A DNA stretch of 35,898 nt, taken from the IMG/VR virus record IMGVR_UViG_3300009690_000003; one strand, 5' to 3'. Positions 1,762 through 35,898 of the stretch are shown here, one piece after another. This stretch comes from a virus. Every line of letters begins with the position of its first letter. Position 1 is the stretch's first letter. Both the position numbers and the translations under genes were made by a program. The notes beneath the pieces were generated by a model that saw only the letters and a program-made list of their open reading frames with translations, had not been told where the DNA came from and searched no databases.

Positions 1762-2769
1762 ATGGAGAACTTATTGAATGTGAAAGAGGCGCAGCGGCTG
1801 GATGTGCGTGAGGCCACCACCAATGACAAGTGGGCCAACGCCTTTGGGTTGTGGCTGTCGAGCAAGGCGGGCAACACCCGCCGGGCGTATGAGCTGGCCT
1901 GGGAGATGCTGATGGACTTCACGGGCAAGATGCCCTGGGAGATGGGTTCGGCGGACATCGAGGCCTGGGCGGCCGAGCTGCGCAAGGGATATTCTGAGAG
2001 CACGGTCCAGCAGCGGTTGGCTGCCGTTTCCAGTTTCTTTTCCTATGCCAAGCAGCAGTACATGGATTTTGTGGACGGGGTCGAGATGCCCCTGCACCAC
2101 TACAACCCGGCCAAGGCAGTCCAGCGGCCCAAGGTCCTGGCCTATGGCAAGGCCCATCCGCTGAGTGTTGACTCGGTCAAGGCCCTGCTGGATGCGATCG
2201 ACCGGACCACAGCCCAGGGCAAGCGGGATTATGCGCTGATCCTGGCTTTTGTGCTCACCGGCCGCCGCAACAGCGAGGTGATCAACCTGCGCTGGGGTGA
2301 CCTGGAGCAGCGTGACGGGCGGATCTGGTACCGGTGGCAGGGCAAGGGGTGTACGAGTGGTCGTTACGAGTTGCCTGCTGCTGTTTTCTTGGCCATAACC
2401 GATTGGTTGTCTTCGTCTTCACGGCTGGATGATATGCACGCTGAGGATTACATCTTTACCGCACTGAGCGATCATGCCAGGCACTTCCCGGGTGTGGAGC
2501 ACGACCCTGGGCGTCCGCTCAGCAGCCGTTATGTGCGGGACCTGGTCAAAAAGTACGCTCGGATGGCCGGGCTGGATCCCGACCTGGTGCGGGTGCACGA
2601 CCTGCGTCACACAGCAGCGATGCTGCGGGCTGAGGCGGGCGATGATGTGCGGCTGATCAGCAGCTTCCTGGGTCACAGCGACCTGCGGACCACATCCCGG
2701 TACCTGTTTCAGGTGGGCGGACGCAAGGATGAGAGCTGGGGTAAGGTCTGCGAGATGCTATCGATTTGA
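1762..2769 (+). CDS. Second tyrosine recombinase/integrase (335 aa)
   Basis: Catalytic signature present: TGRRNSEVINLRWGDL (Arg), HDLRHTAAM (HxxR), LGHSDLRTTSRY (His, Tyr). AAGGAG RBS 6 nt upstream of the ATG. Confidence 0.9.
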   Translation: MENLLNVKEAQRLDVREATTNDKWANAFGLWLSSKAGNTRRAYELAWEMLMDFTGKMPWEMGSADIEAWAAELRKGYSESTVQQRLAAVSSFFSYAKQQYMDFVDGVEMPLHHYNPAKAVQRPKVLAYGKAHPLSVDSVKALLDAIDRTTAQGKRDYALILAFVLTGRRNSEVINLRWGDLEQRDGRIWYRWQGKGCTSGRYELPAAVFLAITDWLSSSSRLDDMHAEDYIFTALSDHARHFPGVEHDPGRPLSSRYVRDLVKKYARMAGLDPDLVRVHDLRHTAAMLRAEAGDDVRLISSFLGHSDLRTTSRYLFQVGGRKDESWGKVCEMLSI

Positions 2770-6859: not shown

Positions 6860-7048
6860 ATGTGCAATAAGGAAGAATTTGAAAGGGAGAATGCTGCAGC
6901 TGAGGTGCGGTTGAAATCGTTGGAGGCGCTGGAGCCGAAGTGCAACTGGTCCAGCCCGTGCCCGACGCGGGAAGAGCAGGAGGCCAGGGAACGGTGGAAG
7001 TGGTTGATGGATCGGCAGAGTGAGTTTGAGGAGAAGTGGAATTTGTGA
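6860..7048 (+). CDS. Hypothetical small acidic protein
   Basis: GGAGGA RBS 4 nt before the ATG. Helical, charged sequence. Confidence 0.5.
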   Translation: MCNKEEFERENAAAEVRLKSLEALEPKCNWSSPCPTREEQEARERWKWLMDRQSEFEEKWNL

Positions 7049-7119
7049 GATTGATCCCCGCTCCGCTGACGGTTCGGGGAGTGCGTCGCAGGCTCGCAAT
7101 GACAAAAAAGGAGATTTTG

Positions 7120-7530
7120 ATGGAAAAGATTGTGGTGTATGGCATAGAACGATTACGAAACGGTGAGGCCAGGACGATGATGGTGCCGGTTGAGAAGGGT
7201 GACCGGATCGAATGGACGCACCAAGGATTTTTGACCCGGATTTTTCGGGATGATAAACCGCTGCACTGGCTGGGGCAGAGGATCGGGTGGACGCCCGAGG
7301 GCAATGATCTGGTGGTGCTGCACCTGACGGTGGTGCATGAACCCGGGCAGATCCGGCCGGAGGAGCTGGCCGATGAGGGCTTTGAGACGCTTGAAGATTT
7401 ACGAGGGGCGTTTGGATCGGCTTTTGGTGCGGAACGATTATGGAAAGCGGCCTGGCGGATCACCTGTGGGGTGAATCGGATTTTTGTGGAGACGGAGGCA
7501 GCAGATGCGGGGAGCATCCGCAGGCGGTGA
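7120..7530 (+). CDS. Hypothetical protein, possibly ASCH/PUA-like
   Basis: AAGGAG RBS 6 nt before the ATG at 7120. Small beta-rich protein with a C-terminal EELADEGFETLEDLRGAF segment reminiscent of ASCH domains. The assignment is weak. Confidence 0.5.
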   Translation: MEKIVVYGIERLRNGEARTMMVPVEKGDRIEWTHQGFLTRIFRDDKPLHWLGQRIGWTPEGNDLVVLHLTVVHEPGQIRPEELADEGFETLEDLRGAFGSAFGAERLWKAAWRITCGVNRIFVETEAADAGSIRRR

Positions 7531-11332: not shown

Positions 11333-11740
11333 ATGAACATCATAGTGAAAAACCGAGACACCAACGATTTTTATAGGACCGCCAGTGTAAGATCGCTCAA
11401 TACGCTCGAGGACGGATATGGCAAGTATTTTGATAATCGCGATATCAACAAAATCATTAATGCAAAAGAGGTTACTTTGCCCTCAGAGCAGTATGCTGCA
11501 GCCCTGGCATATGACACAAAGCATGGGCACATTATCAACGAAGTGATTCAACCTCCAACCACAACACAGACTCACTGGCGTGACGAGCCAGCCACCAGCC
11601 GACAGTATGGCTATATTCGCAGTCTGGGTTATGACGTTGAGGAAAAATTAACCAAGGGCGAAGCCAGCAGGTTGATCGATATGATCAAGGCTGGAGAAGC
11701 TGGCAGCCTCAACCTAATGCGATACGATGGGGCCTACTAA
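11333..11740 (+). CDS. Hypothetical protein (AT-rich cassette, gene 1)
   Basis: GAGGAG RBS. 135 aa. C-terminal PATSRQYGYIRSLGY...LTKGEASRLIDMIK motif. Confidence 0.65.
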   Translation: MNIIVKNRDTNDFYRTASVRSLNTLEDGYGKYFDNRDINKIINAKEVTLPSEQYAAALAYDTKHGHIINEVIQPPTTTQTHWRDEPATSRQYGYIRSLGYDVEEKLTKGEASRLIDMIKAGEAGSLNLMRYDGAY

Positions 11741-11741
11741 G

Positions 11742-12098
11742 ATGACAAAAAAAACTTCGGTAGCATACAGGATCAGCGAGCAAGCGTTGGAGAGCTTAGA
11801 GATCATCACCCAGGCAACTGGCATCACAAAAACCGCTGCAGTGGAGATGGCACTGGCGGTGTTAGCAAATCAACTAAAAGGAGATACGCAAATGGCACAC
11901 AATCGCAGGCGATGGTTAGAGCAAAAGTTTTTTGATCTTCAGGTTGGCGATTTTGAGGAGATGGGCGATTTAACAGATGATCAGCTGGAAAGCCTGATCC
12001 GCGAAATTGAGCCGTTGTTAGAGAAATATCCTGATGGTGTTGAATCTAACGAGTTTATGGGTGAACTGGAGGTGTTGGTTAATTCGTACATTGAATGA
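11742..12098 (+). CDS. Ribbon-helix-helix (CopG/Arc-like) DNA-binding protein (AT-rich cassette, gene 2)
   Basis: The N-terminus SVAYRISEQALESLEIITQATGITKTAAVEMALAVLANQL fits a beta-alpha-alpha RHH pattern. The ATG lies 1 nt after the upstream stop. Confidence 0.6.
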   Translation: MTKKTSVAYRISEQALESLEIITQATGITKTAAVEMALAVLANQLKGDTQMAHNRRRWLEQKFFDLQVGDFEEMGDLTDDQLESLIREIEPLLEKYPDGVESNEFMGELEVLVNSYIE

Positions 12099-13206: not shown

Positions 13207-13945
13207 TCCAAAGGATTTGGAGCAGCTGGCGCTGGGGTTAGACCTGCCCGAGCCGGAGGAAGAGGCGGGTTTAAGCCGCGATGAGGTGATGCGGATGAGT
13301 ATGGCGGCGATGCAGGCGCTGGAGGCTGGGCAGGAGACTGCTTCGCAAGCTCGCAGTGACAATAATGCTTGGTTTTCTGACTATTTGCGGCTGAAGGAGC
13401 TGGGCTTTTCGTGGCGGGTGGCGGCGTATATTGCGTGGGAAGCCAGCCCGAGGGGGTCCAGGTGGCCTGGAACCGTGGCGGAGCTGGCCACGGAGGTGTT
13501 GGGATTGAAGTCGCCGCGGGTGATTTATACCTGGCGGAAGAAGAACCCGGCGATCGATGAGATCATCTCGGTGATGCAAACGGAGCCGCTGTATGAGCAT
13601 CGGCGAGATGTGATCGAGGCGTTGATTGCTGTGGCGAGCGATCCGGATTATAAGGGGCATGCAGACCGGAAGCTGTTTTTTGAGATGATCGGGGATTATG
13701 TGCCCCGTTCGCAGGTGGACATGGGGATGAAGAAGGTCTCGGATGATGATTTGAGCGAGCTGAGTGACGAAGAGCTGCGCAGGTTGACGGAGCGGTTGAA
13801 GGATAAGGAAGCTGAAAGCTCAAAGCTGAAAGCTGATAGTGGGCCGACATCTCCTGATGTCGGCACTGCGCCGATCCCCGAAAAGGGGACTTTGAACCTT
13901 GATGGTTCTCGGCTTGAGACGGAGGACGGGCAAGAGGATGCCTGA
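13190..13945 (+). CDS. terS: Putative terminase small subunit (HTH), with repeat-derived inserts
   Basis: Lies immediately upstream of TerL. HTH-like TVAELATEVLGLKSPRVIYTWRKK. The GTG start is tentative. The C-terminal tail is encoded by heptamer and hairpin repeats. Confidence 0.5.
   Translation: MIRKNDPKDLEQLALGLDLPEPEEEAGLSRDEVMRMSMAAMQALEAGQETASQARSDNNAWFSDYLRLKELGFSWRVAAYIAWEASPRGSRWPGTVAELATEVLGLKSPRVIYTWRKKNPAIDEIISVMQTEPLYEHRRDVIEALIAVASDPDYKGHADRKLFFEMIGDYVPRSQVDMGMKKVSDDDLSELSDEELRRLTERLKDKEAESSKLKADSGPTSPDVGTAPIPEKGTLNLDGSRLETEDGQEDA
13334..13362. repeat. Degenerate copy of the GAGATTGCTTCG...CTCGCAATGACA repeat, in frame in TerS
   Basis: GAGACTGCTTCGCAAGCTCGCAGTGACAA, translated as ETASQARSDN. 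Confidence 0.65.
13811..13838. repeat. GCTGAWA heptamer array (4 units) in frame in TerS
   Basis: GCTGAAA GCTCAAA GCTGAAA GCTGATA, translated as AESSKLKADS. Confidence 0.85.
13841..13872. repeat. Covarying hairpin repeat (GGCC-stem-TCTCCTGA-stem-GCACTGCGC family), in frame in TerS
   Basis: GGGCCGACATCTCCTGATGTCGGCACTGCGCCG. Same architecture as 17113-17144, with three compensatory stem changes. Confidence 0.75.
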
Positions 13946-13981
13946 GATGTTGACGGCAATTGATCCACAGGTGGCCCAGGC

Positions 13982-14041
13982 GGGCCAGCGCCTTATGGTG
14001 CTTGGCACTGTGCTGGTGCGGCTTGAGGCCGCCCAGCTTGA
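13982..14041. repeat. 60-nt repeat, copy 1 (copy 2 at 24593-24652)
   Basis: GGGCCAGCGCCTTATGGTGCTTGGCACTGTGCTGGTGCGGCTTGAGGCCGCCCAGCTTGA fills the TerS-TerL spacer. 54/60 identical to copy 2. Confidence 0.85.
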
Positions 14042-14064
14042 GTCTGATTTACAAGGCGGTAATC

Positions 14065-15759
14065 GTGGCTGAGTTATTACAGGTCATAGATCCTGCTATT
14101 GCTCAGGCTGAGCTGGCAAAGCGGACGCTGGCCAGGCGGCACCTGGTGGATTTTTCGGAGTATGTGAGCCCATGGTATCACGGGTACCGGCATCACCGGC
14201 TGGTGGGGCTGTACCTGGAGCAAGTGGCTGATTATATCCGCAGCCGAGGGAAGGAGGGCATCGGCCGATTGATGATCACAATGCCGCCCCGGCACGGAAA
14301 GACGGAGCAGTGCTCACGGCAGTTCCCAGCATGGTTATTGGGACTGATGCCGGATACCCGGATCATTTTGACTTCGTATAACGGCGACCGGGCGAATGCG
14401 AACAGCCGCGGCGCACGTGATTTGGTGATGGACCCACGCTATGGGGCTGTGTTTGGGATGAAATCATCGGTGGATGCGCCGGTGGACCTGTCTTCTGACA
14501 GCCGGTCGGTGACGGCGTGGGACCTGGCGAACCCGCACAGAGGCGGTGTGGTGGCGGCCGGTGTGGGCGGCGGGATCACGGGTACGGGTGCGCATTTGAT
14601 GGTGGTGGATGACCCCTTGCGCGGACGTGAAGAGGCAGAGAGCCGGGCCCAGCGTGACCGCGTATGGGACTGGTGGACTTCTACGGCTTATACCCGTTTG
14701 GAGGATGGCGGCGCGGTGGTGCTGATTATGACCCGCTGGCATCCGGATGATTTGGCCGGTCGGTTGCTGCAGCAGATGGCGAGCGACCCGATGGCGGATC
14801 AGTGGCAGGTGGTGAATTTACCGGCGATATGGCCAGGTTCTCATGATCCCGCTCCGCAGGCTTCGGGGACAAGCCCTGGCACTTCGCTGGAGCGGGTTGA
14901 GCCCGCCCAGCTTCGGCAGGGGGACGGGGAACCGATACCCTCACGGGCACAGGCGACGGGTGACAGGGGAGATTGCTTCGCTTCGCTCGCAATGACAGAA
15001 GAAGAAGATCCCTGGCCGGTGCATTTCAGGGATATGCTGTTGAACGGGGTGTGGGTGCAAAAAGAGGATCCGTTGGGACGGAAGCCGGGCGAGGCGTTAT
15101 GGCCGGAGAAGTATTCTGAGGAGGATTTACTGCGGATCCAGACGAATGTGGGTGCGCATGATTGGATTTCGCTGTATCAGCAGAGCCCGATCCAGCGTGA
15201 GGGGGCGATGTTCAAGCCGGAGTGGGTGGACGTTGTTGACCGGATCCCAGGCAAGGTGATCGCCCGAGTGCGGTACTGGGATAAGGCCGGGACGGAGGGG
15301 GGCGGCGACTATTCAGCTGGCGTGTTGATGGCGATGACGAATGATAAGCATTTTTACATCGAGCATGTGAAGCGGGAGCAGCTGAGTTTTTATGTGCGCA
15401 ACCAAACGATGGCCAAGATGATCGATGCTGATGGGGAACGGGAAGGGCCGGTGGTGAAGACTTACCAGGAGGTGGAGCCCGGGGCAGCCGGTAAGGAAGC
15501 GGCAGCCAACACGGTGAAAGAGATGCAGGGCCGTGGGATTATCGCTGACCCAGTGGGCAATAAGAGTAAAGACGTGCGTGCGATGGCGCTTTCGACAGCC
15601 TGCGAGGCCGGTCTGGTGCACCTGGTGCGTGCGGAATGGAATCAAAAATTTATGGAAGAGCTGATGATGTTCCCGAAGGGCGTGCACGACGACCAGGTGG
15701 ATGCGGCTGCGGGTGCATATAACAAACTGGCCCGAGGCGGAAGGAGCGGCGTATTTTAA
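14065..15759 (+). CDS. terL: Terminase large subunit
   Basis: Walker A-like MPPRHGKT, Walker B-like HLMVVDDP, MTRWHPDDL. C-terminal nuclease region with the conserved pattern GVHDDQVDA. The GTG at 14065 was chosen because the upstream in-frame stretch is repeat DNA. Confidence 0.85.
   Translation: MAELLQVIDPAIAQAELAKRTLARRHLVDFSEYVSPWYHGYRHHRLVGLYLEQVADYIRSRGKEGIGRLMITMPPRHGKTEQCSRQFPAWLLGLMPDTRIILTSYNGDRANANSRGARDLVMDPRYGAVFGMKSSVDAPVDLSSDSRSVTAWDLANPHRGGVVAAGVGGGITGTGAHLMVVDDPLRGREEAESRAQRDRVWDWWTSTAYTRLEDGGAVVLIMTRWHPDDLAGRLLQQMASDPMADQWQVVNLPAIWPGSHDPAPQASGTSPGTSLERVEPAQLRQGDGEPIPSRAQATGDRGDCFASLAMTEEEDPWPVHFRDMLLNGVWVQKEDPLGRKPGEALWPEKYSEEDLLRIQTNVGAHDWISLYQQSPIQREGAMFKPEWVDVVDRIPGKVIARVRYWDKAGTEGGGDYSAGVLMAMTNDKHFYIEHVKREQLSFYVRNQTMAKMIDADGEREGPVVKTYQEVEPGAAGKEAAANTVKEMQGRGIIADPVGNKSKDVRAMALSTACEAGLVHLVRAEWNQKFMEELMMFPKGVHDDQVDAAAGAYNKLARGGRSGVF
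14830..15000. repeat. Composite in-frame insertion of four repeat modules inside TerL
   Basis: TGGCACTTCGCTGGAGCGGGTTGAGCCCGCCCAGCTT (14877-13, as in 24612-24650). ACCCTCACGGGCACAGGCGAC (14936-14957, as in 26686-26706). GAGATTGCTTCGCTTCGCTCGCAATGACA (14969-14997, identical to 26644-26672). Confidence 0.8.
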
Positions 15760-17927
15760 TGGCACGACAGAAGCGCAGCACTTTTTTGGAGACGGTGACG
15801 CGATGGGTCAAGACGATCAGCCCGCGCAAGTATGCGATCACATCGATCAGCTCAAACGGGGTGGAAGTGACCCGTTTGGTGGACTTCAACACGTATTGCG
15901 AAGAGGGTTATAAACGCAACGCGGTGGTGTATTCGGCGGTGCGTGAGATCGCGAGGACGGCACCGAGCGCACGGCTGCAGGTGCATAAGCGGCTGGGGCA
16001 GGGGCAGACGGAAATCCAGGAAGATAACCCGATCCAGGACCTGCTGGACTTTCCGAACCCATGGCAGAGCCATTATGACTTTTTGGAGACGCTGATCACG
16101 TATTTGAACCTGGACGGGAACGCGTACATCATCCGAGAACGAGAAGGTGTTAATACAAAAGCGATGTGGCTGCCGAGGCCGGATTTGATGTCGGCCGTGG
16201 TGGACGGGAAAAAGTCGATCTTTGAGGCAAACGCTCTCTTGGGTTATGCCTATATCACGCAGACGGGCGAAAAGCTGTATTTTTTGCCGGAGGACGTGAT
16301 CCACATCAAGTACCCGAACCCGAATGATCCGCACGGCGGGATGGGAAGAGGGCATCCGCCATTGATGGCTGCGGCCGCTGATGCGGATAATGACAATAAT
16401 CAGACCACGTTTATCAAGCAGTTTTTCAAAAACGGCGCGGTGCCATCTGGCATTATTAAATCGAAGAATATTTTGGATGATGGCGAGGTGAGGCGGATCC
16501 AGAGCCGGATCGGAGAGCAGTATTCTGGTGAGGCTAACTGGCACAAGGTGATGGTGCTGGATGCGGATGCGGAGTACCAGCAGACGGGATTGAACCTGGA
16601 CCAGATGGTATTTCCGGACCTACGGGCGATTTCTGAGACAAGGATCTGTGCAGCTTTCAAGGTACCGCCGGTGCTGATTGGCGTGAAGGCCGGGTTGGAT
16701 GCGGCCACATATTCAAACTATGCGCTGGCCAGGCGGGCACTGTGGGAGGACAACATCATCCCGACAACGACGAAGCTGGCCGAAGCGCTGACCCGGGCAT
16801 TATCGGATGAGATGGATGAAGACGTGATCATCGTGGCGGATTACAGCAACGTGGTGGCGCTGCAGGATGACCGCACGAACCGATTTGCCAGGGCAAACCA
16901 GGCGGTGATTGGCGGATGGATCACGGTTAATGAGGCGAGGCGTGAGGTGGGTTTGGGCCCGCTGCCGATGGGTGTGGGCGATGTGCTGTACCGGCCGCTG
17001 ATGAGCGAGGCGGTGGATGATGGGGCGGGAGATGCGAGTAGGAAGATGACCCCTCTCCTAACCTCTCCCCTAAAGGAGAGAGGAATAAAAAAAACAGATG
17101 GTTCTTCAGTTTGGCCAGCGTCTCCTGACGCTGGCACTTCGCTGATGCAGCTTGATGCTGCTTCAGCTTGGAAGGCGTTTGATCGGGTGGCGAGGAAATG
17201 GGAGGGGCAGTTCAAGCGGACTGCGGCCAGGCTGTTCGAGGAGGAAGAGCGCGAGATCGAGGGGCGGATCAACGGGATGAAGGGCAAGTCGATCAAGGCG
17301 ATTGATTTTGAAGCGATTTTGACGGCGATTGCGACCTTCATGGCGGTTGAATCGGTGAAGAAATGGCAGACGGAATTTTTACCGCTGATGATGGGACTGA
17401 TGCAAGAGCAGCTGAGCGCATGGATTGGCTCGGTGGGGATCGACTGGGATATTGAAAACCCGGCGGTGGCCGATTTTATCCGGAGCCACTCGTTTGCATT
17501 TGCGCAGCGGATCAGCGATACGACGATGGAAGATGTGAAGCGGCTGATTTTGGCCGCACAGGGTGAGGGCTGGTCCACGGTGCGGCTGATGGATGAGCTG
17601 AAGGCGGTGTATGGCGGCTGGTCTGACCTGCGGGCGGAGATGATTGCGCGGAGCGAGACGATCCGGAGTTCGAACGCAGGACTGGTGGAGGGGTATAAGC
17701 AGAACGGGATCACGCAGATCGAGTGGTATGCGGCATTGGATGAACGTCTGTGCCCGTTTTGCAATGAGATGCACGGGAAGCAGATTGCGATTGGCGAGGC
17801 GTGGTTTGAGGGCGGGAGCGAGATGTATGTGGGCCAGGAACGGCTGGTGATGGATTATGGCGATGTGTACTGGCCGCCGCTGCACCCGAACTGCCGGTGT
17901 GTGATGCAGCCGGTGATTGGTGATTAG
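15759..17927 (+). CDS. Portal protein fused to a MuF / SPP1 gp7-like head morphogenesis domain
   Basis: The N-terminal ~430 aa are portal-like. The C-terminal part (AADFIRSHSFAFAQRIS...ARSETIRSSNAG...LDERLCPFC...HPNCRC) is the MuF minor head protein signature. TAATG overlap with TerL. Confidence 0.8.
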   Translation: MARQKRSTFLETVTRWVKTISPRKYAITSISSNGVEVTRLVDFNTYCEEGYKRNAVVYSAVREIARTAPSARLQVHKRLGQGQTEIQEDNPIQDLLDFPNPWQSHYDFLETLITYLNLDGNAYIIREREGVNTKAMWLPRPDLMSAVVDGKKSIFEANALLGYAYITQTGEKLYFLPEDVIHIKYPNPNDPHGGMGRGHPPLMAAAADADNDNNQTTFIKQFFKNGAVPSGIIKSKNILDDGEVRRIQSRIGEQYSGEANWHKVMVLDADAEYQQTGLNLDQMVFPDLRAISETRICAAFKVPPVLIGVKAGLDAATYSNYALARRALWEDNIIPTTTKLAEALTRALSDEMDEDVIIVADYSNVVALQDDRTNRFARANQAVIGGWITVNEARREVGLGPLPMGVGDVLYRPLMSEAVDDGAGDASRKMTPLLTSPLKERGIKKTDGSSVWPASPDAGTSLMQLDAASAWKAFDRVARKWEGQFKRTAARLFEEEEREIEGRINGMKGKSIKAIDFEAILTAIATFMAVESVKKWQTEFLPLMMGLMQEQLSAWIGSVGIDWDIENPAVADFIRSHSFAFAQRISDTTMEDVKRLILAAQGEGWSTVRLMDELKAVYGGWSDLRAEMIARSETIRSSNAGLVEGYKQNGITQIEWYAALDERLCPFCNEMHGKQIAIGEAWFEGGSEMYVGQERLVMDYGDVYWPPLHPNCRCVMQPVIGD
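17051..17144. repeat. In-frame repeat insertion in the portal-MuF linker (C-rich hairpin copy 2 plus covarying hairpin)
   Basis: CCCTCTCCTAACCTCTCCCCTAAAGGAGAGAGG is read as PLLTSPLKERG, with the TAA out of frame. GGCCAGCGTCTCCTGACGCTGGCACTTCGCTG lies at 17113-17144. Confidence 0.8.
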
Positions 17928-17964: not shown

Positions 17965-18681
17965 ATGGATAACAAACAGATGACGACAAAAATATTTCCG
18001 AGCTTTACAAAGAGCATGGATGCTGAGACGGGGATCGTGGAGGCGTATGTGAGCCTGATGGGGATCAAAGACCTGGACAGCCCACCGGATGTGATCCAGA
18101 TGGGGGCGTTTGCGAAGACGATCCAGGAGCGCGGCCCGCAGGGAGCACGTAAGATCCGGGTTTTGCACCAACACAAGTGGGACCGGGTTATCGGGACCCC
18201 GCTGACGCTGGTGGAGCACACCCGCGATATGCTGCCACCTGAGCTGCTGGCGCTGTATCCGGAGGCCACGGGCGGGCTTTTTGCCCGGACGCAGTTTGTG
18301 ATGGATGTGCAGCAGGGCAGAGAAACGTATGCGCTGTATAAGGCCGGTGCGATGGATGAATGGTCGATCGGGTTTGATACGCTGCAGTTTGAGTACCTGA
18401 AGAGCGAGGAAGAGGATACTTATCGGATTTTGAAGGAGCTGAAGCTGTGGGAGTATTCGCCGGTGACGTGGGGGATGAACCCGGCGACGGTGACGACGGC
18501 GGTTAAAGCGGATAGCTCAAAGCTGATAGCTGATAGTAAAGAAGAAGATGATGATGAAACTAACTCGGATGGTGGTGCCGAGCCGCATGAAGATGCACTC
18601 ACACCAACCAGGGAGATGGCGATGAAACTTAAACAATTAGAAATTGATCTGGCGATGGCCAGACTACGGAGGTTGAAATGA
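17965..18681 (+). CDS. HK97-family prohead protease
   Basis: Sits between portal and capsid. Matches the S78-like pattern (VLHQHKWDRVIG, EWSIGF, LWEYSPVTWGMNP). GGAGGG RBS. Confidence 0.8.
   Translation: MDNKQMTTKIFPSFTKSMDAETGIVEAYVSLMGIKDLDSPPDVIQMGAFAKTIQERGPQGARKIRVLHQHKWDRVIGTPLTLVEHTRDMLPPELLALYPEATGGLFARTQFVMDVQQGRETYALYKAGAMDEWSIGFDTLQFEYLKSEEEDTYRILKELKLWEYSPVTWGMNPATVTTAVKADSSKLIADSKEEDDDETNSDGGAEPHEDALTPTREMAMKLKQLEIDLAMARLRRLK
18515..18535. repeat. GCTGAWA heptamer array (3 units) in frame in the protease C-terminal tail
   Basis: GCTCAAA GCTGATA GCTGATA, translated as SSKLIADS. Confidence 0.85.
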
Positions 18682-24592: not shown

Positions 24593-24652
24593 GGGCCAGC
24601 GCCTCATGGCGCTTGGCACTGCGCTGGTGCGGGTTGAGCCCGCCCAGCTTGA
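24593..24652. repeat. 60-nt repeat, copy 2
   Basis: GGGCCAGCGCCTCATGGCGCTTGGCACTGCGCTGGTGCGGGTTGAGCCCGCCCAGCTTGA. Intergenic. Confidence 0.85.
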
Positions 24653-24666
24653 AATTTGGTGAAACT

Positions 24667-24984
24667 ATGACAGATAAATTTAACAGGAAGGCTGTGGTGA
24701 TGCTGAAATATTTAGGAAATGGGTTTTTGAAGAAGGTTCCGGCCAGGGATTTGACCAAAGACGAGGTTGAGGGGCTGGGGTTGGATCCGGATGTGCTGGT
24801 GGGGAGCGGGCTGTATGCATTAGCTGAAAGCTCATCCCACTCGCTTCGCTCGGGGACGATGAAGCTGAAAGCTGATAGCGATAAGATTGACCTCGCTCGC
24901 CTTAAAGTAGAGGTGGAAACCGATTTAGGAGAATTGGAGGTTTTATTGGAGGATGATCAGGTTGAACCTTCGCAGGATGAATGA
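24667..24984 (+). CDS. Hypothetical structural-module protein carrying repeat-derived inserts
   Basis: The ATG at 24667 lies after the repeat. The middle of the protein (LAESSSHSLRSGTMKLKADSDK) is encoded by heptamer and GCTTCGCTCG repeat modules. Confidence 0.5.
   Translation: MTDKFNRKAVVMLKYLGNGFLKKVPARDLTKDEVEGLGLDPDVLVGSGLYALAESSSHSLRSGTMKLKADSDKIDLARLKVEVETDLGELEVLLEDDQVEPSQDE
24823..24884. repeat. Two GCTGAWA heptamer arrays flanking a CTCGCTTCGCTCGGGG module, in frame
   Basis: GCTGAAA GCTCATC ... GCTGAAA GCTGATA GCGATAA. Confidence 0.8.
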
Positions 24985-25018
24985 GATTGCTTCGACCCCT
25001 ACGTGGTCTCGCAATGAC
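24983..25018. repeat. GAGATTGCTTCG...CTCGCAATGAC repeat, variant with a different centre
   Basis: GAGATTGCTTCGACCCCTACGTGGTCTCGCAATGAC overlaps the stop of 24667-24984. Confidence 0.75.
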
Positions 25019-26643: not shown

Positions 26644-26712
26644 GAGATTGCTTCGCTTCGCTCGCAATGACAAAGGTGCTCGCAATACCCTTACGGGCAC
26701 AGGTGACAAAAT
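26644..26712. repeat. Repeat cluster in the chaperone-tape measure spacer
   Basis: GAGATTGCTTCGCTTCGCTCGCAATGACA (identical to 14969-14997), then a partial GTGCTCGCAATA, then ACCCTTACGGGCACAGGTGAC (as in 14936-14957). Confidence 0.85.
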
Positions 26713-26740: not shown

Positions 26741-28903
26741 ATGGGTCAATCAATCGTAGAGATCATCATCAAGGCGAGCAACCAGGCTTCGGGCGAGTTT
26801 AAGAAGGCCTTTGGCGATTTGGGCAACCTGGGCAAGGTGGCGGAGGAAACCGGCAAGGGGATGCGCAAGGCTGGGCTGGCGATCACCGCTGGCGTGACCA
26901 CGCCCCTGGTGGGCTTTATCACCACATCGGCCATGGCTGCCGCCCGGGTGGACGGGCTGAAGCTGGCGAATGACCAGCTGGCAAAGGGTGCGGGCTATAC
27001 ATCACAGTTTGTCCAGGAACAGGCGGCGGCGGTTAAGGGCATGGGGATTGAATCAGCAGCCGCCCAGCAAATCATCAGCAAGTTCATCACCGCCCAGCTG
27101 GATTTGGGGGATGCGGCCACGCTGGCCCGGATCGCACAGGACCAGGCGGTGATCAGCGGGGAAAACAGCACCGAGACGATGACACGGCTGACGGATGCCC
27201 TGATCACGGGCAACAGCCAGATGTTCCGCAGCATGAACATGACGCTGGATCTGAGCGGCGCCTACGAGGCGATGGCAGTCGGGCTGGGGAAAAATGTGGA
27301 CGAGCTGAGCGAGACCGAACGGGTCCAGGCCCGGGTGAATGCGGTGATGGAATACGGCACGACCATCGCCGGGACCTACGAAGCGGCCATGGGCGACAGC
27401 TTCAAGCAAATGGGCAGCTTCAAGCGGATGATCAACGATATTGCCGTGGATGCCGGGCAGTACTTCACGCCCGCATTGAACACGGCCGTGTTCGGGTTCA
27501 AGGACCTGCTGGGCACGGTGAGCGAGATGGTGAGCGAGGGCGGCGCACTGGAGCCGGTGCTGGCAGGCTGGGGGGATAAGCTGAACGATGCGGCCGGGTT
27601 CATCGGCAAGTTTGATGACAAATTGAAGGGGATGAAACCCACCACAGCCGGGTTTATCGGTGATATGACCGCAGCGACAGCCGTGATGGGCCCCCTATTG
27701 CTGGTGGGCGGGCAGGCGGTGATCTGGGCCACAACGCTGGCGAAGGCTTTGGGCACGTCCGCTGGAGCACTGGGGATTTATGCCGCCGGGATCTACGCGG
27801 TGACGGCGGCCATGGTCCACCAGGCGAATGAACGAAAACGGCTGATTGCCGATCATCAGGAAATGGCGCAATCGGCGCTGGAGGCTTCAGATTCATACGA
27901 AGACTACCGTGCATCGATGGCGGGGGTTGAAAACCAGATCGATAACCTGGCGGGTGTGACGGGCGGGTATGGCGTGCACCTGGCAGATACGCTGGGTAAA
28001 ACCGTGATCCTGACCAGAGAACAGTGGGAGCAGCAAAAGGCACAAAAGGACCTGGGATCTGCCTACGCGTACAGTGCGGCAGTGATGAAGAGCTATTACG
28101 ATCAGACCGAAACGGGCATTGAGATCACTGATGAGGCCACGGACGCGATCGACGAGCACGAGCGCGCTTTAAACCGGGCGGCGGTGCGGGCCAAGGAATA
28201 TGGCGGGGCCAGCGACATCGCCCGGGAGGCGCTGGAAAAACTGGGTGTGGAAGCTGAAGAACAAGCCCGCCTGATGGACGAGCTGAACGGTTCCACAGAG
28301 AAGCTGACCGCAACAGATTTGCTGTTGGTTGACCTGAACACGAGTTTGACCAAGCTGTGGGCGGAAAATGCGCTCAGCACGGAATCGTACAATGCCGCAT
28401 TGGAATTTGCACACCAACTGGCTGAGGATTACCCTGAAAAGCTTTCGCCAGTCATAGAAATGTTTGGCGAATGGGGCGGTAAGGTGCAGAACATCGGCGA
28501 CCTGCTGCACGGGCTGCCGAGCCAAATTAAAATTGACATCATCCAGACCTGGTATGAGGCGCAGGGCGGGACGTGGGGGGGGGCGGGCAATATCGGTGCA
28601 GGGATTGGTGGCCAAGGGCAAGGACATGTAAACACATTTGCCACGGCGACGGGCGGACCGGTGTACCCGGGGCAGGTCTATCGCTGGCGGGAGTTTGGCG
28701 ATGAGTTTTTCATCCCCAACCAGCCGGGCTATGTGATGCCGCACCGGGAGGTGGAGCGGGCGCGCAGCGGGGGTGGTAAGGGGTTAGGTGAGCTGCATGT
28801 GCACATCCACAGTGCGATCAACCTGGCGGACCGGGCCTGGGCTGAACGTGAGCTGATCCCGCTGTTTCGGGATGTGCTGCGCAGGGAGATGATTGGCGCA
28901 TGA
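26741..28903 (+). CDS. Tail tape measure protein
   Basis: 720-aa Ala/Gly-rich helical protein directly after the chaperones. The central hydrophobic GxxxG-rich segment is typical of tape measure proteins. Confidence 0.8.
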   Translation: MGQSIVEIIIKASNQASGEFKKAFGDLGNLGKVAEETGKGMRKAGLAITAGVTTPLVGFITTSAMAAARVDGLKLANDQLAKGAGYTSQFVQEQAAAVKGMGIESAAAQQIISKFITAQLDLGDAATLARIAQDQAVISGENSTETMTRLTDALITGNSQMFRSMNMTLDLSGAYEAMAVGLGKNVDELSETERVQARVNAVMEYGTTIAGTYEAAMGDSFKQMGSFKRMINDIAVDAGQYFTPALNTAVFGFKDLLGTVSEMVSEGGALEPVLAGWGDKLNDAAGFIGKFDDKLKGMKPTTAGFIGDMTAATAVMGPLLLVGGQAVIWATTLAKALGTSAGALGIYAAGIYAVTAAMVHQANERKRLIADHQEMAQSALEASDSYEDYRASMAGVENQIDNLAGVTGGYGVHLADTLGKTVILTREQWEQQKAQKDLGSAYAYSAAVMKSYYDQTETGIEITDEATDAIDEHERALNRAAVRAKEYGGASDIAREALEKLGVEAEEQARLMDELNGSTEKLTATDLLLVDLNTSLTKLWAENALSTESYNAALEFAHQLAEDYPEKLSPVIEMFGEWGGKVQNIGDLLHGLPSQIKIDIIQTWYEAQGGTWGGAGNIGAGIGGQGQGHVNTFATATGGPVYPGQVYRWREFGDEFFIPNQPGYVMPHREVERARSGGGKGLGELHVHIHSAINLADRAWAERELIPLFRDVLRREMIGA

Positions 28904-34117: not shown

Positions 34118-34123
34118 TACTTT

Positions 34124-34179
34124 TGTCATTGCGAGGAGCGCAGCGACGACTGCTTGCGTCCTGTAAAGGAAGCAATCTC
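34124..34179. repeat. GAGATTGCT...GCAATGACA repeat, inverted orientation, long variant
   Basis: TGTCATTGCGAG...(33 nt)...AGCAATCTC. Confidence 0.75.
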
Positions 34180-34306
34180 AGCTTGGGCGTGAAAGGTATT
34201 CGATGAAGCAACCGTCTGGTGTGGGAGCAGGTACCAGGAAGATCCATGGCAGCACAGCGTTTAAAGCTTAACCAGCCCTGTTGGGTGCGCCTGCTCAGCT
34301 TCATAC

Positions 34307-34331
34307 GCGGGTTCGATTCCCGCCACGTCCA
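34307..34331 (+). other. Orphan tmRNA/tRNA-Ala-type 3' end (T arm plus acceptor 3' strand)
   Basis: GCGGG TTCGATT CCCGC CACGTCC A, with T at the position corresponding to U70 of a G3:U70 pair. No matching 5' acceptor strand (GGRCGTG) within 300 nt on either side. Confidence 0.55.
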
Positions 34332-34493
34332 CTGATTGCCTTTTTAGAAAAGGCGCCGTACTGGAGTGAGTACACGATAGCCGCCCACCATGCAGGGTAA
34401 TCTGTCCCATACACTCAATGGGTTGCTAGCAAGAGCGTAAAATGGGCATGGAAGGCAATCTTAGTCGACCTACCACGAGTAGGCACGATAGCA

Positions 34494-35317: not shown

Positions 35318-35375
35318 TGAACTCATTATAGTTTATTCTTGGGAAAATTGCAATAATTTGTATGGGTTCAATACA

Positions 35376-35447
35376 TGCCCCCGACCAGATTCGAACCGAT
35401 ATCTTATCCCTGCGAAGGAAAAGCTTTTTCCATTAAGCTACGGGTGC
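35376..35447 (-). tRNA. tRNA-like gene, anticodon CGC (Ala-type) but without G3:U70; two stem mismatches
   Basis: Hand-folded cloverleaf of 72 nt: GCACCCG TA GCTT AATGGAAA AAGC T TTTCC TTCGCAG GGATA AGAT ATCGG TTCGAAT CTGGT CGGGGGC A. U8, A14, G18G19 and the GTTCGAAT T loop are present. A3-G70 and U28-U42 are mismatches. A TATAAT lies 12 nt upstream. Confidence 0.6.
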
Positions 35448-35525
35448 ATGTGTTAATAATTATACGCCGGTCATAAAAAGAATTAATATATATGGCCGAT
35501 ATTTTAGGATGGCACTAAATACCGA

Positions 35526-35898
35526 TTACAACCCCCACTTCTCAACCGGTGAGGCGTGGCGGTGGGCGTCATCCAGGTCGGATTGGCTGATGGCCAGGTA
35601 GCGCTTGACCATGTCGAGCGTGGTGTGGCCGAGTATCTCCTGCAGCGTGTAGATGTTGGGGTAATTGCGCAGGTAATTGACGGCGAAGGTGTGGCGGAAG
35701 TCGTGCGGCGTGTAATGGGGGAGCTCGGCCCGGGCGGCGATCCGCTCGAGGATGTGGCGCAGGTGGGTGCGGGTGAGCGGCCCGCCGTTTTGGGTGGCAA
35801 ACAGGTGCTGGCCCATGGGATCGTCCTTGCGGTCCGCTGCCAGGTAGCGCCAGATGGCCTGGCCGGTGCGCGCTGAGAAGGGTAGCATGCGCTCTTTG
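35526..35898 (-). CDS. int: Tyrosine integrase, C-terminal third (same gene as 1-686)
   Basis: HDFRHTFAVNYL (HxxR) and LGHTTLDMVKRYL (His, catalytic Tyr). The stop is at 35526-35528. The frame continues through the 123-nt overlap. Confidence 0.92.
   Translation of the reverse strand, partial: KERMLPFSARTGQAIWRYLAADRKDDPMGQHLFATQNGGPLTRTHLRHILERIAARAELPHYTPHDFRHTFAVNYLRNYPNIYTLQEILGHTTLDMVKRYLAISQSDLDDAHRHASPVEKWGL
35776..35898. repeat. Terminal overlap identical to 1-123
   Basis: Exact identity on direct reading. Confidence 0.95.

Follow-up and report, generated by a model that had tools for sequence, protein, structure and literature searches.

A probable mosaic of intergenic hairpin repeats, in frame, within a phage large terminase gene

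The viral record IMGVR_UViG_3300009690_000003 (35,898 nucleotides, the whole of which is referred to as the window) contains a large terminase gene, TerL, that carries an in-frame, stop-free insert. We conclude, with a probability of roughly 0.7, that this insert is a mosaic of miniature hairpin repeats of the kind found between genes, that it sits in a loop of TerL tolerant of length changes, and that it is turned over mainly by recombination. An earlier first-pass annotation had described the insert as a concatenation of three repeat modules, and its numbering of these modules is retained here. Feature coordinates are collected in Table 1, and related contigs and homologues are cited by our handles (L and P numbers).

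The insert and its modules

The assignment of the open reading frame (ORF) to TerL was confirmed with Pfam, where Terminase_6N (amino acids 71–255) and Terminase_6C (amino acids 404–554) score above threshold, and with Foldseek, where the top matches for the TerL model are large terminases (8dgc_E, 5oe8 and 3cpe). The top structural match, 8dgc, is the Avs3–terminase complex. A TerL profile gave no match when compared with PDB sequences. Residues are numbered from the GTG at 14065, where the N-termini of homologues line up in the alignment. The protein is of the Terminase_6 (T4-like) type, with an N-terminal ATPase domain and a C-terminal RNaseH-like nuclease domain.

Between W256 and the RDMLLNG stretch the window has 198 nt, compared with 48 nt in the insert-free relatives L002 and L010. 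The segment of about 57 codons originally reported is thus a real insert, but the net insertion is only about 50 codons. It is located in the loop that joins strand VVNLPAIW to helix FRDMLLNGVW, directly behind the final ATPase-core strand and ahead of the helical lid/linker. The site had been placed between the ATPase and nuclease halves of the protein. It does follow the ATPase core, but lies ∼90 residues short of the nuclease domain and does not mark the exact boundary. In an AlphaFold2 model of TerL with a mean predicted local distance difference test score (pLDDT) of 79.5, residues 263–313 (nt 14851–15003) have pLDDT values of 25–36 and no secondary structure, and are flanked by a confident strand (residues 248–251) and a confident helix (residues 317–326). 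The insert is therefore modelled as a disordered surface loop, and the model and the alignment of homologues together agree with a lineage-specific insertion. Predicted tryptic peptides of the region are VEPAQLR, AQATGDR and GDCFASLAMTEEEDPWPVHFR.

Separately, the model contains a second low-confidence loop at residues ∼141–147 (nt ∼14485–14505; pLDDT below 50 at residues 142–146), which is lengthened by repetitive peptides in distant homologues such as L150, P0116, P0103, P0112, P0083 and P0064.

Module matches cover positions 14839–14913, 14935–14957 and 14965–15000, or about 75% of the insert. The proposal that it is built entirely from repeats holds to this extent only, as the remainder is a G-rich connector that is common to the orthologous inserts of L003 and L009. 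All three of the reported module matches were recovered. Positions 14877–14913 match 24614–24650 (35/37; BLAST E=3e-11) and also match 14003–14039 (32/37). For module 2, the two matches (14935–14957 and 26685–26707) compare with 0.00 expected in 100 shuffles, and module 3 is identical at every position to its partner (Table 1). The partner copies all lie in gaps between genes, as had been claimed.

Module 1 is indeed the 3′ part of a 60-nt repeat, but the insert also holds a diverged version of the 5′ half (hairpin A). Across 45 nt, positions 14839–14883 share 93% identity with intergenic DNA of L009 (1714–1758), which makes the left part of the insert a module as well. Counterparts of hairpin A in L003 and L256 are without the nested hairpin seen in the window. 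The module 1 hairpin (hairpin B) is composed of a lower stem, one conserved bulge, an upper stem and the loop YTGAK. Among 15 copies, which use nine different upper stems, 149 of 150 stem positions pair, whereas none of 5000 permutations of the pairing partners reached 149 (mean 117.6, standard deviation 5.0, maximum 135). The copy just upstream of the TerL start, for example, has the upper stem GCGGC/GCCGC, which is compensatory relative to other copies. Those copies that reside in TerL and in the portal gene, where a further two-hairpin element (17113–17167) lies inside the portal-MuF ORF, retain the hairpin. Coding copies always use the one frame that is generally without stops, as would be expected under selection against stop codons. 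In a scan of contigs, module 1 was confined to a few viral ones.

In TerL, a degenerate module 3 right end (CCGAT) comes before module 2, and in every other copy module 2 follows CTCGCAAT. Its position is constant, at the junction CGCAAT/GAC of the module 3 right end, and its stem covaries (CCC/GGG versus CTC/GAG).

To survey module 3, we scanned for its two 11-nt ends (GAGATTGCTTC...CTCGCAATGAC) separated by 0–30 nt. The ends were found in at least 120 bacterial contig stretches, representing many phyla and including isolates, and in at least 118 viral contig stretches. Among 111 distinct sequences, the foot of the hairpin is invariant (ATTGC/GCAAT, with pyrimidine internal loops) while the tip varies freely but is self-complementary. 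Bacterial copies are mostly intergenic (median stop-free span of 111 codons versus 378 at random positions). An inverted partner is often present within a few bases on the upstream side, and inverted doublets or short arrays are common. Phage copies are single and nearly all in one orientation. Translations of module 3 differ by phage and use three frames (DCFASLAMT, EIAS...RNDK and RLLR...RND), and therefore it is the DNA or RNA structure rather than the peptide that is conserved. No Rfam family matched the insert or the bacterial module 3 copies, either at gathering scores or at E≤1, and in the literature the nucleotide strings of module 3 and its six-frame peptides matched nothing but primers and epitopes unrelated to it. 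Module 3 is part of a far wider, unnamed family of hairpins, similar to repetitive extragenic palindromic (REP) sequences, that extends across bacterial phyla and phages.

No sigma-70 promoter or intrinsic terminator signal was detected within the insert. The motif TGGCAC-N5 was considered as a sigma-54 promoter and rejected on inspection, since in every copy the −12 element has its GC 2 nt out of place.

The loop in relatives and other sites of insertion

In an alignment of 25 homologues, relatives at 65–85% identity and all those at ∼50% identity have the short loop ‘NLPAIWEkPsiPEdKdfE..RDMLLNGVW’, and expansion is restricted to the closest clade. Those without the repeats are also without the peptide: P0009, P0010 and P0012–P0018 are insert-free and read ‘WEkPsiPEdKdfE’. 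Among 94 homologues, the loop has a mode of 19 amino acids and is expanded to at least 30 amino acids in 30 of them. At least nine different mosaics occupy the same codon (those of the window, L003, L004/L005, L007, L008, L009, L255, L256 and L257), and each matches intergenic or tail DNA elsewhere. That the insertion is in frame and stop-free extends to all of the ∼10 variants, whose lengths (198, 168, 162, 153, 138, 123, 99, 96 and 69 nt) are without exception multiples of three. Flanking sequences are 84–97% identical, whereas the insert region is just 40–64% alignable. A TerL that is only 46% identical to that of the window has module 3 in the same loop, and the loop of P0050 contains ‘RLLRRSAPRND...NRNDK’.

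The window-type insert itself is present in eight cluster members on more than 20 contigs from independent sources (JGI, ENA, NCBI and Logan); one of these contigs is 2.64 Mb long. L001 has this insert with one single-nucleotide polymorphism, and P0122 (∼90% identity) retains it with three amino-acid changes. A metagenome scan for further TerL relatives yielded five loci, none of them new.

The same modules enter other reading frames. The linker that joins the portal and Mu-F domains in the portal-MuF ORF (15759–17927) holds a second mosaic, and every relative has a different in-frame mosaic there. In L004 (ORF L004:2780–5608; region L004 4175–4779) this linker contains an in-frame LigT/2H-phosphoesterase domain (PF13563, amino acids 519–618) bracketed by two direct copies of module 3. 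L010 has one module 3 at this place, and the two are thus a filled-site/empty-site pair. The only other occurrences of the LigT cassette were in the same phage lineage and in an unrelated multi-effector virion protein, where identity was 34% and module 3 did not flank it. A third site is the C-terminal tail of the TerS-like protein, where the D4 repeat has the motif AGCTGAWAGCT. This tail and the gap between terS and terL (13800–14060, including a 60-nt element) are unalignable between relatives, and the TerL inserts of L255 and L257 are copies of the terS-tail cluster.

Copies of the D1 hairpin family lie directly after stop codons in four of six cases (19957, 23555, 24094 and 32716), whereas that at 17049 is inside the portal-MuF ORF; all six are without a trailing T-run. 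A D1-type hairpin fills the TerL loop of L008 and L256, and probably also those of P0021 and P0029. In L150, a viral contig whose TerL is 46% identical to that of the window, an additional TerL loop and the portal linker share the repeat peptide ‘PMNTDEHR(I)L’, from which it follows that other repeat families behave alike.

Table 1. Features of the window and composition of TerL inserts in relatives
Feature	Position	Strand	Remarks
TerL, large terminase gene	14065–15759	+	Likely true start GTG 14065; mechanical ORF from TTG 13960
In-frame, stop-free insert	∼14833–15000	+	Net ∼150 nt (∼50 codons) longer than insert-free relatives
Diverged hairpin A half of two-hairpin element	14833–14885	+	Nested extra hairpin GGCTTCGGGGACAAGCC; ends TGGCACT
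Module 1 hairpin (hairpin B)	14886–14911	+	GCTGG-A-GCGGG-TTGAG-CCCGC-CCAGC; covariation, repeat identity
Module 2, 18-nt mini-hairpin	14935–14957	+	ACCC-TCAC-GGG CACAGG; matches 26685–26707
Module 3	14969–14997	+	GAGATTGCTTCG-CTTCG-CTCGCAATGACA; read as DCFASLAMT; 29/29 to 26644–26672, E=3e-11
60-nt two-hairpin element, intergenic	13982–14041	+	Just upstream of TerL start; 92% identical to 24593–24652
60-nt two-hairpin element, intergenic	24593–24652	+	Upstream of gene starting ATG 24667
Intergenic cluster	26644–26711	+	Complete module 3 (26644–26672), then partial right end and module 2 (26678–26707); upstream of 720-aa gene at 26741
Intergenic module 3 copy	24983–25018	+	Different core ACCCCTACGTGGT
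Degenerate module 3 copy	7047–7104	+	Long hairpin core (family D15); just upstream of gene at 7121
Module 3, long form	34120–34179	−	Sole minus-strand copy; beside tmRNA-like element
Mosaic in portal-MuF linker	17049–17167	+	Second in-ORF mosaic; D1 hairpin 17049–17084 and two-hairpin element 17113–17167
TerS-like C-terminal tail	13800–13945	+	Built of modules; D4 repeat 13809–13840 and degenerate module 1
D1 family hairpins, polypyrimidine/purine	10466, 17049, 19957, 23555, 24094, 32716		CCTCTCCCC-TAAA-GGGGAGAGG type
Repressor/cro-like helix-turn-helix pair	1009–1380 and 1424–1723	− and +
Second, XerC/D-like tyrosine recombinase	1762–2769	+	Early operon, directly after repressor/cro-like pair
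Miniature tmRNA-like element	34185–34334	+	Rfam tmRNA 39.5 bits (gathering score 47), local E=3e-14
Insert of L009			Two-hairpin element with other stem sequences, and module 3
Insert of L003			Two-hairpin element and module 3 left half
Insert of L256			Two-hairpin element and D1-type polypyrimidine/purine hairpin
Insert of L008			D1-type alone
Insert of L007			Module 3, three in tandem
Insert of L005			Single module 3
Insert of L004			Insert of L005 with two nested sub-modules, 21 and 18 nt
Insert of L257			D4-family copy; 95.7% to window 18506–18551, 92.7% to own terS tail
Insert of L255			Copy of terS-tail cluster; 88% over 58 nt to window 13818–13875

How the modules may spread

Two comparisons locate breakpoints at the insert. 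L008 is 80–89% identical to the window up to 14800, has no identity across the insert, and is 97–100% identical from 15100 to the end of the contig. P0122 shows the converse, with 99.6% identity before the insert and 87.3% after it. As identity switches at the insert in both, the module cluster appears to serve as a recombination joint, and these breakpoints together with the bracketed LigT cassette lead us to favour recombination or gene conversion among dispersed copies. Under this model, hairpin units that normally lie between genes would have been copied into the one length-tolerant place of TerL, the loop between ATPase core and lid. The initial seeding would be an illegitimate event, after which units would spread and swap mainly through recombination or gene conversion between dispersed copies, and the site would become a landing pad, open to the replacement of one module cluster by any other. 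Purifying selection would spare only in-frame, stop-free versions, while those out of frame or with stops, which are never seen, would be lethal. The insert would be translated as a passenger loop with no peptide function required, and as a side effect TerL would be split into two exchangeable halves.

Several points weigh against this interpretation. All of the sequences compared are metagenomic, and the breakpoint evidence consists of the two comparisons above. The folding energy of the insert as a whole is unexceptional (z=−1.15), and for this reason the case for structure rests on covariation. Inserts of the window, L003 and L009 share one architecture, and part of the diversity may thus be divergence from a single ancestral insert. 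The window gave no match to a transposase, a REP-associated tyrosine transposase (RAYT) or an HNH protein, and no mobilizing enzyme was identified; neither of the nested insertions (L005 empty versus L004 filled) has a target-site duplication. Lastly, conservation of the module 3 foot across phyla suggests recognition by some protein, which a model of recombination alone leaves unexplained.

In an unlikely, though not negligible, alternative the hairpins would be substrates of an enzyme, as are REP sequences or palindrome-associated transposable elements (PATEs). They would be inserted de novo by an HUH/Y1 transposase (a host RAYT or an IS200/IS605-type enzyme) or by the Xer-like recombinase encoded at 1762–2769, and recombination would be secondary. 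The invariant foot, pyrimidine internal loops and free tip of module 3 resemble the protein-recognized hairpins of REPs or attC sites, and its ends do not differ between the many phyla and phages that carry it. Phage copies have a nearly uniform orientation, module 1 has a conserved bulge, module 2 is nested at one exact position, and the phage encodes a second, Xer-like recombinase. One module 3 copy at the empty site, compared with two direct copies around the cassette, also fits site-specific integration. On the other hand, there is no Y1/HUH transposase in the window, no conserved target sequence precedes the module 3 copies, and 2.0 Mb of sequence from 250 module 3-bearing loci contained a single RAYT-like ORF, without flanking module 3. 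Modules 1 and 3 are like REPs in being short imperfect palindromes (20–40 nt) in which the foot is conserved and the tip varies. The bacterial copies of module 3 are mostly extragenic and often form inverted doublets resembling REPINs, the doublet form of REPs, with several motif types mixed as in bacterial interspersed mosaic elements (BIMEs). However, the GTAG/CGTC tag of REPs is absent: module 3 begins with GAGATTGC and ends with GCAATGAC, and module 1 is preceded by TGGCACT. Classical REPs are species-specific, whereas module 3 ends are identical across phyla, and the phage copies differ from REPINs in being single, co-oriented and partly intragenic, inverted doublets being frequent in bacteria only.

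It is distinctly less probable that the element is adaptive. The modules might function as hairpins for RNA processing or stability, as recombination linkers, or as loops selected at the protein level, for example by blunting Avs recognition of TerL and portal. Avs1–3 and Avs4 recognize TerL and portal, respectively, and both proteins carry internal mosaics in this phage. Compensatory changes preserve the hairpins even within ORFs, modules lie directly upstream of genes, the mosaic boundary coincides with the insert, and the loop is expanded in 30 of the 94 homologues across the family. However, the element is dispensable, insert-free relatives being common, and the insert has no promoter- or terminator-like signal. 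No peptide is conserved, because close relatives differ completely in content and module 3 varies in frame. Note also that the portal mosaic is in the portal-MuF linker, off the portal fold.

A smaller probability still is given to the idea that the modules, and module 3 in particular, serve a structure-specific, cross-host system, possibly Xer-like, as its sites of recombination; such a system would insert, swap and delete in-frame peptide and whole-domain cassettes (TerL loop, portal-MuF linker and LigT) within essential virion and packaging proteins, in the manner of an integron acting on protein loops; TerL and portal variability could then aid escape from Avs. The modules resemble attC sites in being folded hairpins with a conserved foot and variable centre, in their single orientation, in bracketing a cassette, and in having a tyrosine recombinase encoded nearby. 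The resemblance is one of analogy only, as the module sequences contain no attC boxes (RYYYAAC/GTTRRRY), the score of the Xer-like protein is 47.7 bits against an integron-integrase cut-off of 265 bits, and the phage cassettes are in-frame protein domains rather than promoterless genes.

Phage terminase genes are known to host introns and inteins, and the segment is rich in hairpins. Nevertheless, its removal before or during expression, whether as a small intron or an intein, by translational bypassing or by programmed DNA excision, is highly improbable. Rfam matched no intron and no ribozyme, not even at E≤1, Pfam showed terminase domains only and no intein/Hint domain, and a segment of ∼170 nt (57 amino acids) is too short for known self-splicing introns. 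Moreover, all of the variant inserts preserve the frame, and module 1 appears only in its open frame, a constraint that would not exist if the segment were removed. Short-read assemblers can be misled by short dispersed repeats, but we give practically no weight to an assembly or chimera artefact because the window insert recurs in independent sources.

The likeness to Rickettsia palindromic elements (RPEs) that the first-pass annotation proposed is supported as an analogy, not as membership; selfish insertion, which it implied, is deduced rather than seen, and the direct evidence favours recombination. According to the summary of Ogata et al. (2000) in PMC10969869, RPEs are ∼150 bp long and comprise ten sequence families in a bacterial chromosome, each of which encodes a conserved peptide in one frame. 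The account in PMC10969869 describes them as palindromic and dispersed, both intergenic and intragenic, with in-gene copies that are in frame, stop-free and spare the protein fold, and reads them as selfish DNA that survives where tolerated. The TerL modules are similarly dispersed palindromes found between genes and within ORFs, and the insert is in frame, stop-free and at a position where the structure of a conserved protein permits it. The sequences are probably unrelated, however, as is to be expected from the Firmicutes-associated phage and from the unit size, and the case differs from that of RPEs in that nested micro-modules of 18–60 nt are concatenated into mosaics, module 3 is read in several frames (three), many mosaics stack at one loop of a phage packaging gene to make it a hotspot, and one module crosses phyla.

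ERIC, BOX, Nezha and other transposable elements of the miniature inverted-repeat type (MITEs) can also make in-frame fusions (reviewed in PMC10969869). The phage modules share with them a small size, non-autonomy and occasional in-frame residence within ORFs, but MITEs are 100–300 bp with terminal inverted repeats and target-site duplications, whereas the phage units are far smaller and no duplication was seen. A further comparison is with the phage ‘linker’ model and the promoter early stem-loops (PeSLs) of T4-type phages. PeSLs contain an early promoter of the sigma-70 type and remain between genes. Both systems have short repeated stem-loops at mosaic junctions that are able to bracket gene cassettes (as at the TerL breakpoint and LigT), but the TerL insert has no promoter consensus, and the phage modules enter reading frames.

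Phage, host and implications

The window is a complete, circularly permuted contig in which positions 1–123 are repeated at 35776–35898, and nearly all of its genes are on the plus strand. The phage is temperate, with a repressor/cro-like pair, two tyrosine recombinases and a tRNA-Ala among its genes. The XerC/D-like recombinase is additional to an integrase that spans the circular junction beside tRNA-Ala (35375–35448). A TerL identical to that of the window is on the 2.64-Mb contig, which carries MGI6730434.1 and is labelled Anaerovoracaceae, and a relative's TerL is on a 586-kb bacterial contig; the lineage therefore occurs as prophages. The phage is Firmicutes-associated and has no close cultured relative, with a best TerL identity below 40% in the phage collection.

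Two other observations concern non-coding DNA. The sole minus-strand copy of module 3 adjoins a miniature element resembling transfer-messenger RNA (tmRNA; 34185–34334), in which each half of the tRNA-like domain has a match to Rfam tmRNA and only ∼88 nt separate the two; ARAGORN called no tmRNA there. Two pairs of intergenic repeats (11052–11114/12165–12227 and 11179–11211/12127–12159), 78–97% identical and ∼1 kb apart, flank genes at 11333–12098 and are unrelated to the TerL modules.

Colonization of genes by in-frame palindromic repeats is a textbook phenomenon only for Rickettsia, and here it concerns the most conserved enzyme of a virus, through far smaller, nested units that turn over rapidly at one loop. 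The modules constitute a concrete DNA source of the length variation seen in TerL and in portal linkers across a large phage family, and an in-gene repeat cluster can serve as a joint for recombination, allowing the halves of TerL to reassort. The analysis also reveals an unnamed hairpin element that has the same ends in bacteria of many phyla and on more than 100 viral contigs. Where TerL is used as a phylogenetic marker, loops of this kind inflate estimates of divergence; they also mark spots at which packaging and portal proteins accept foreign peptides and domains.

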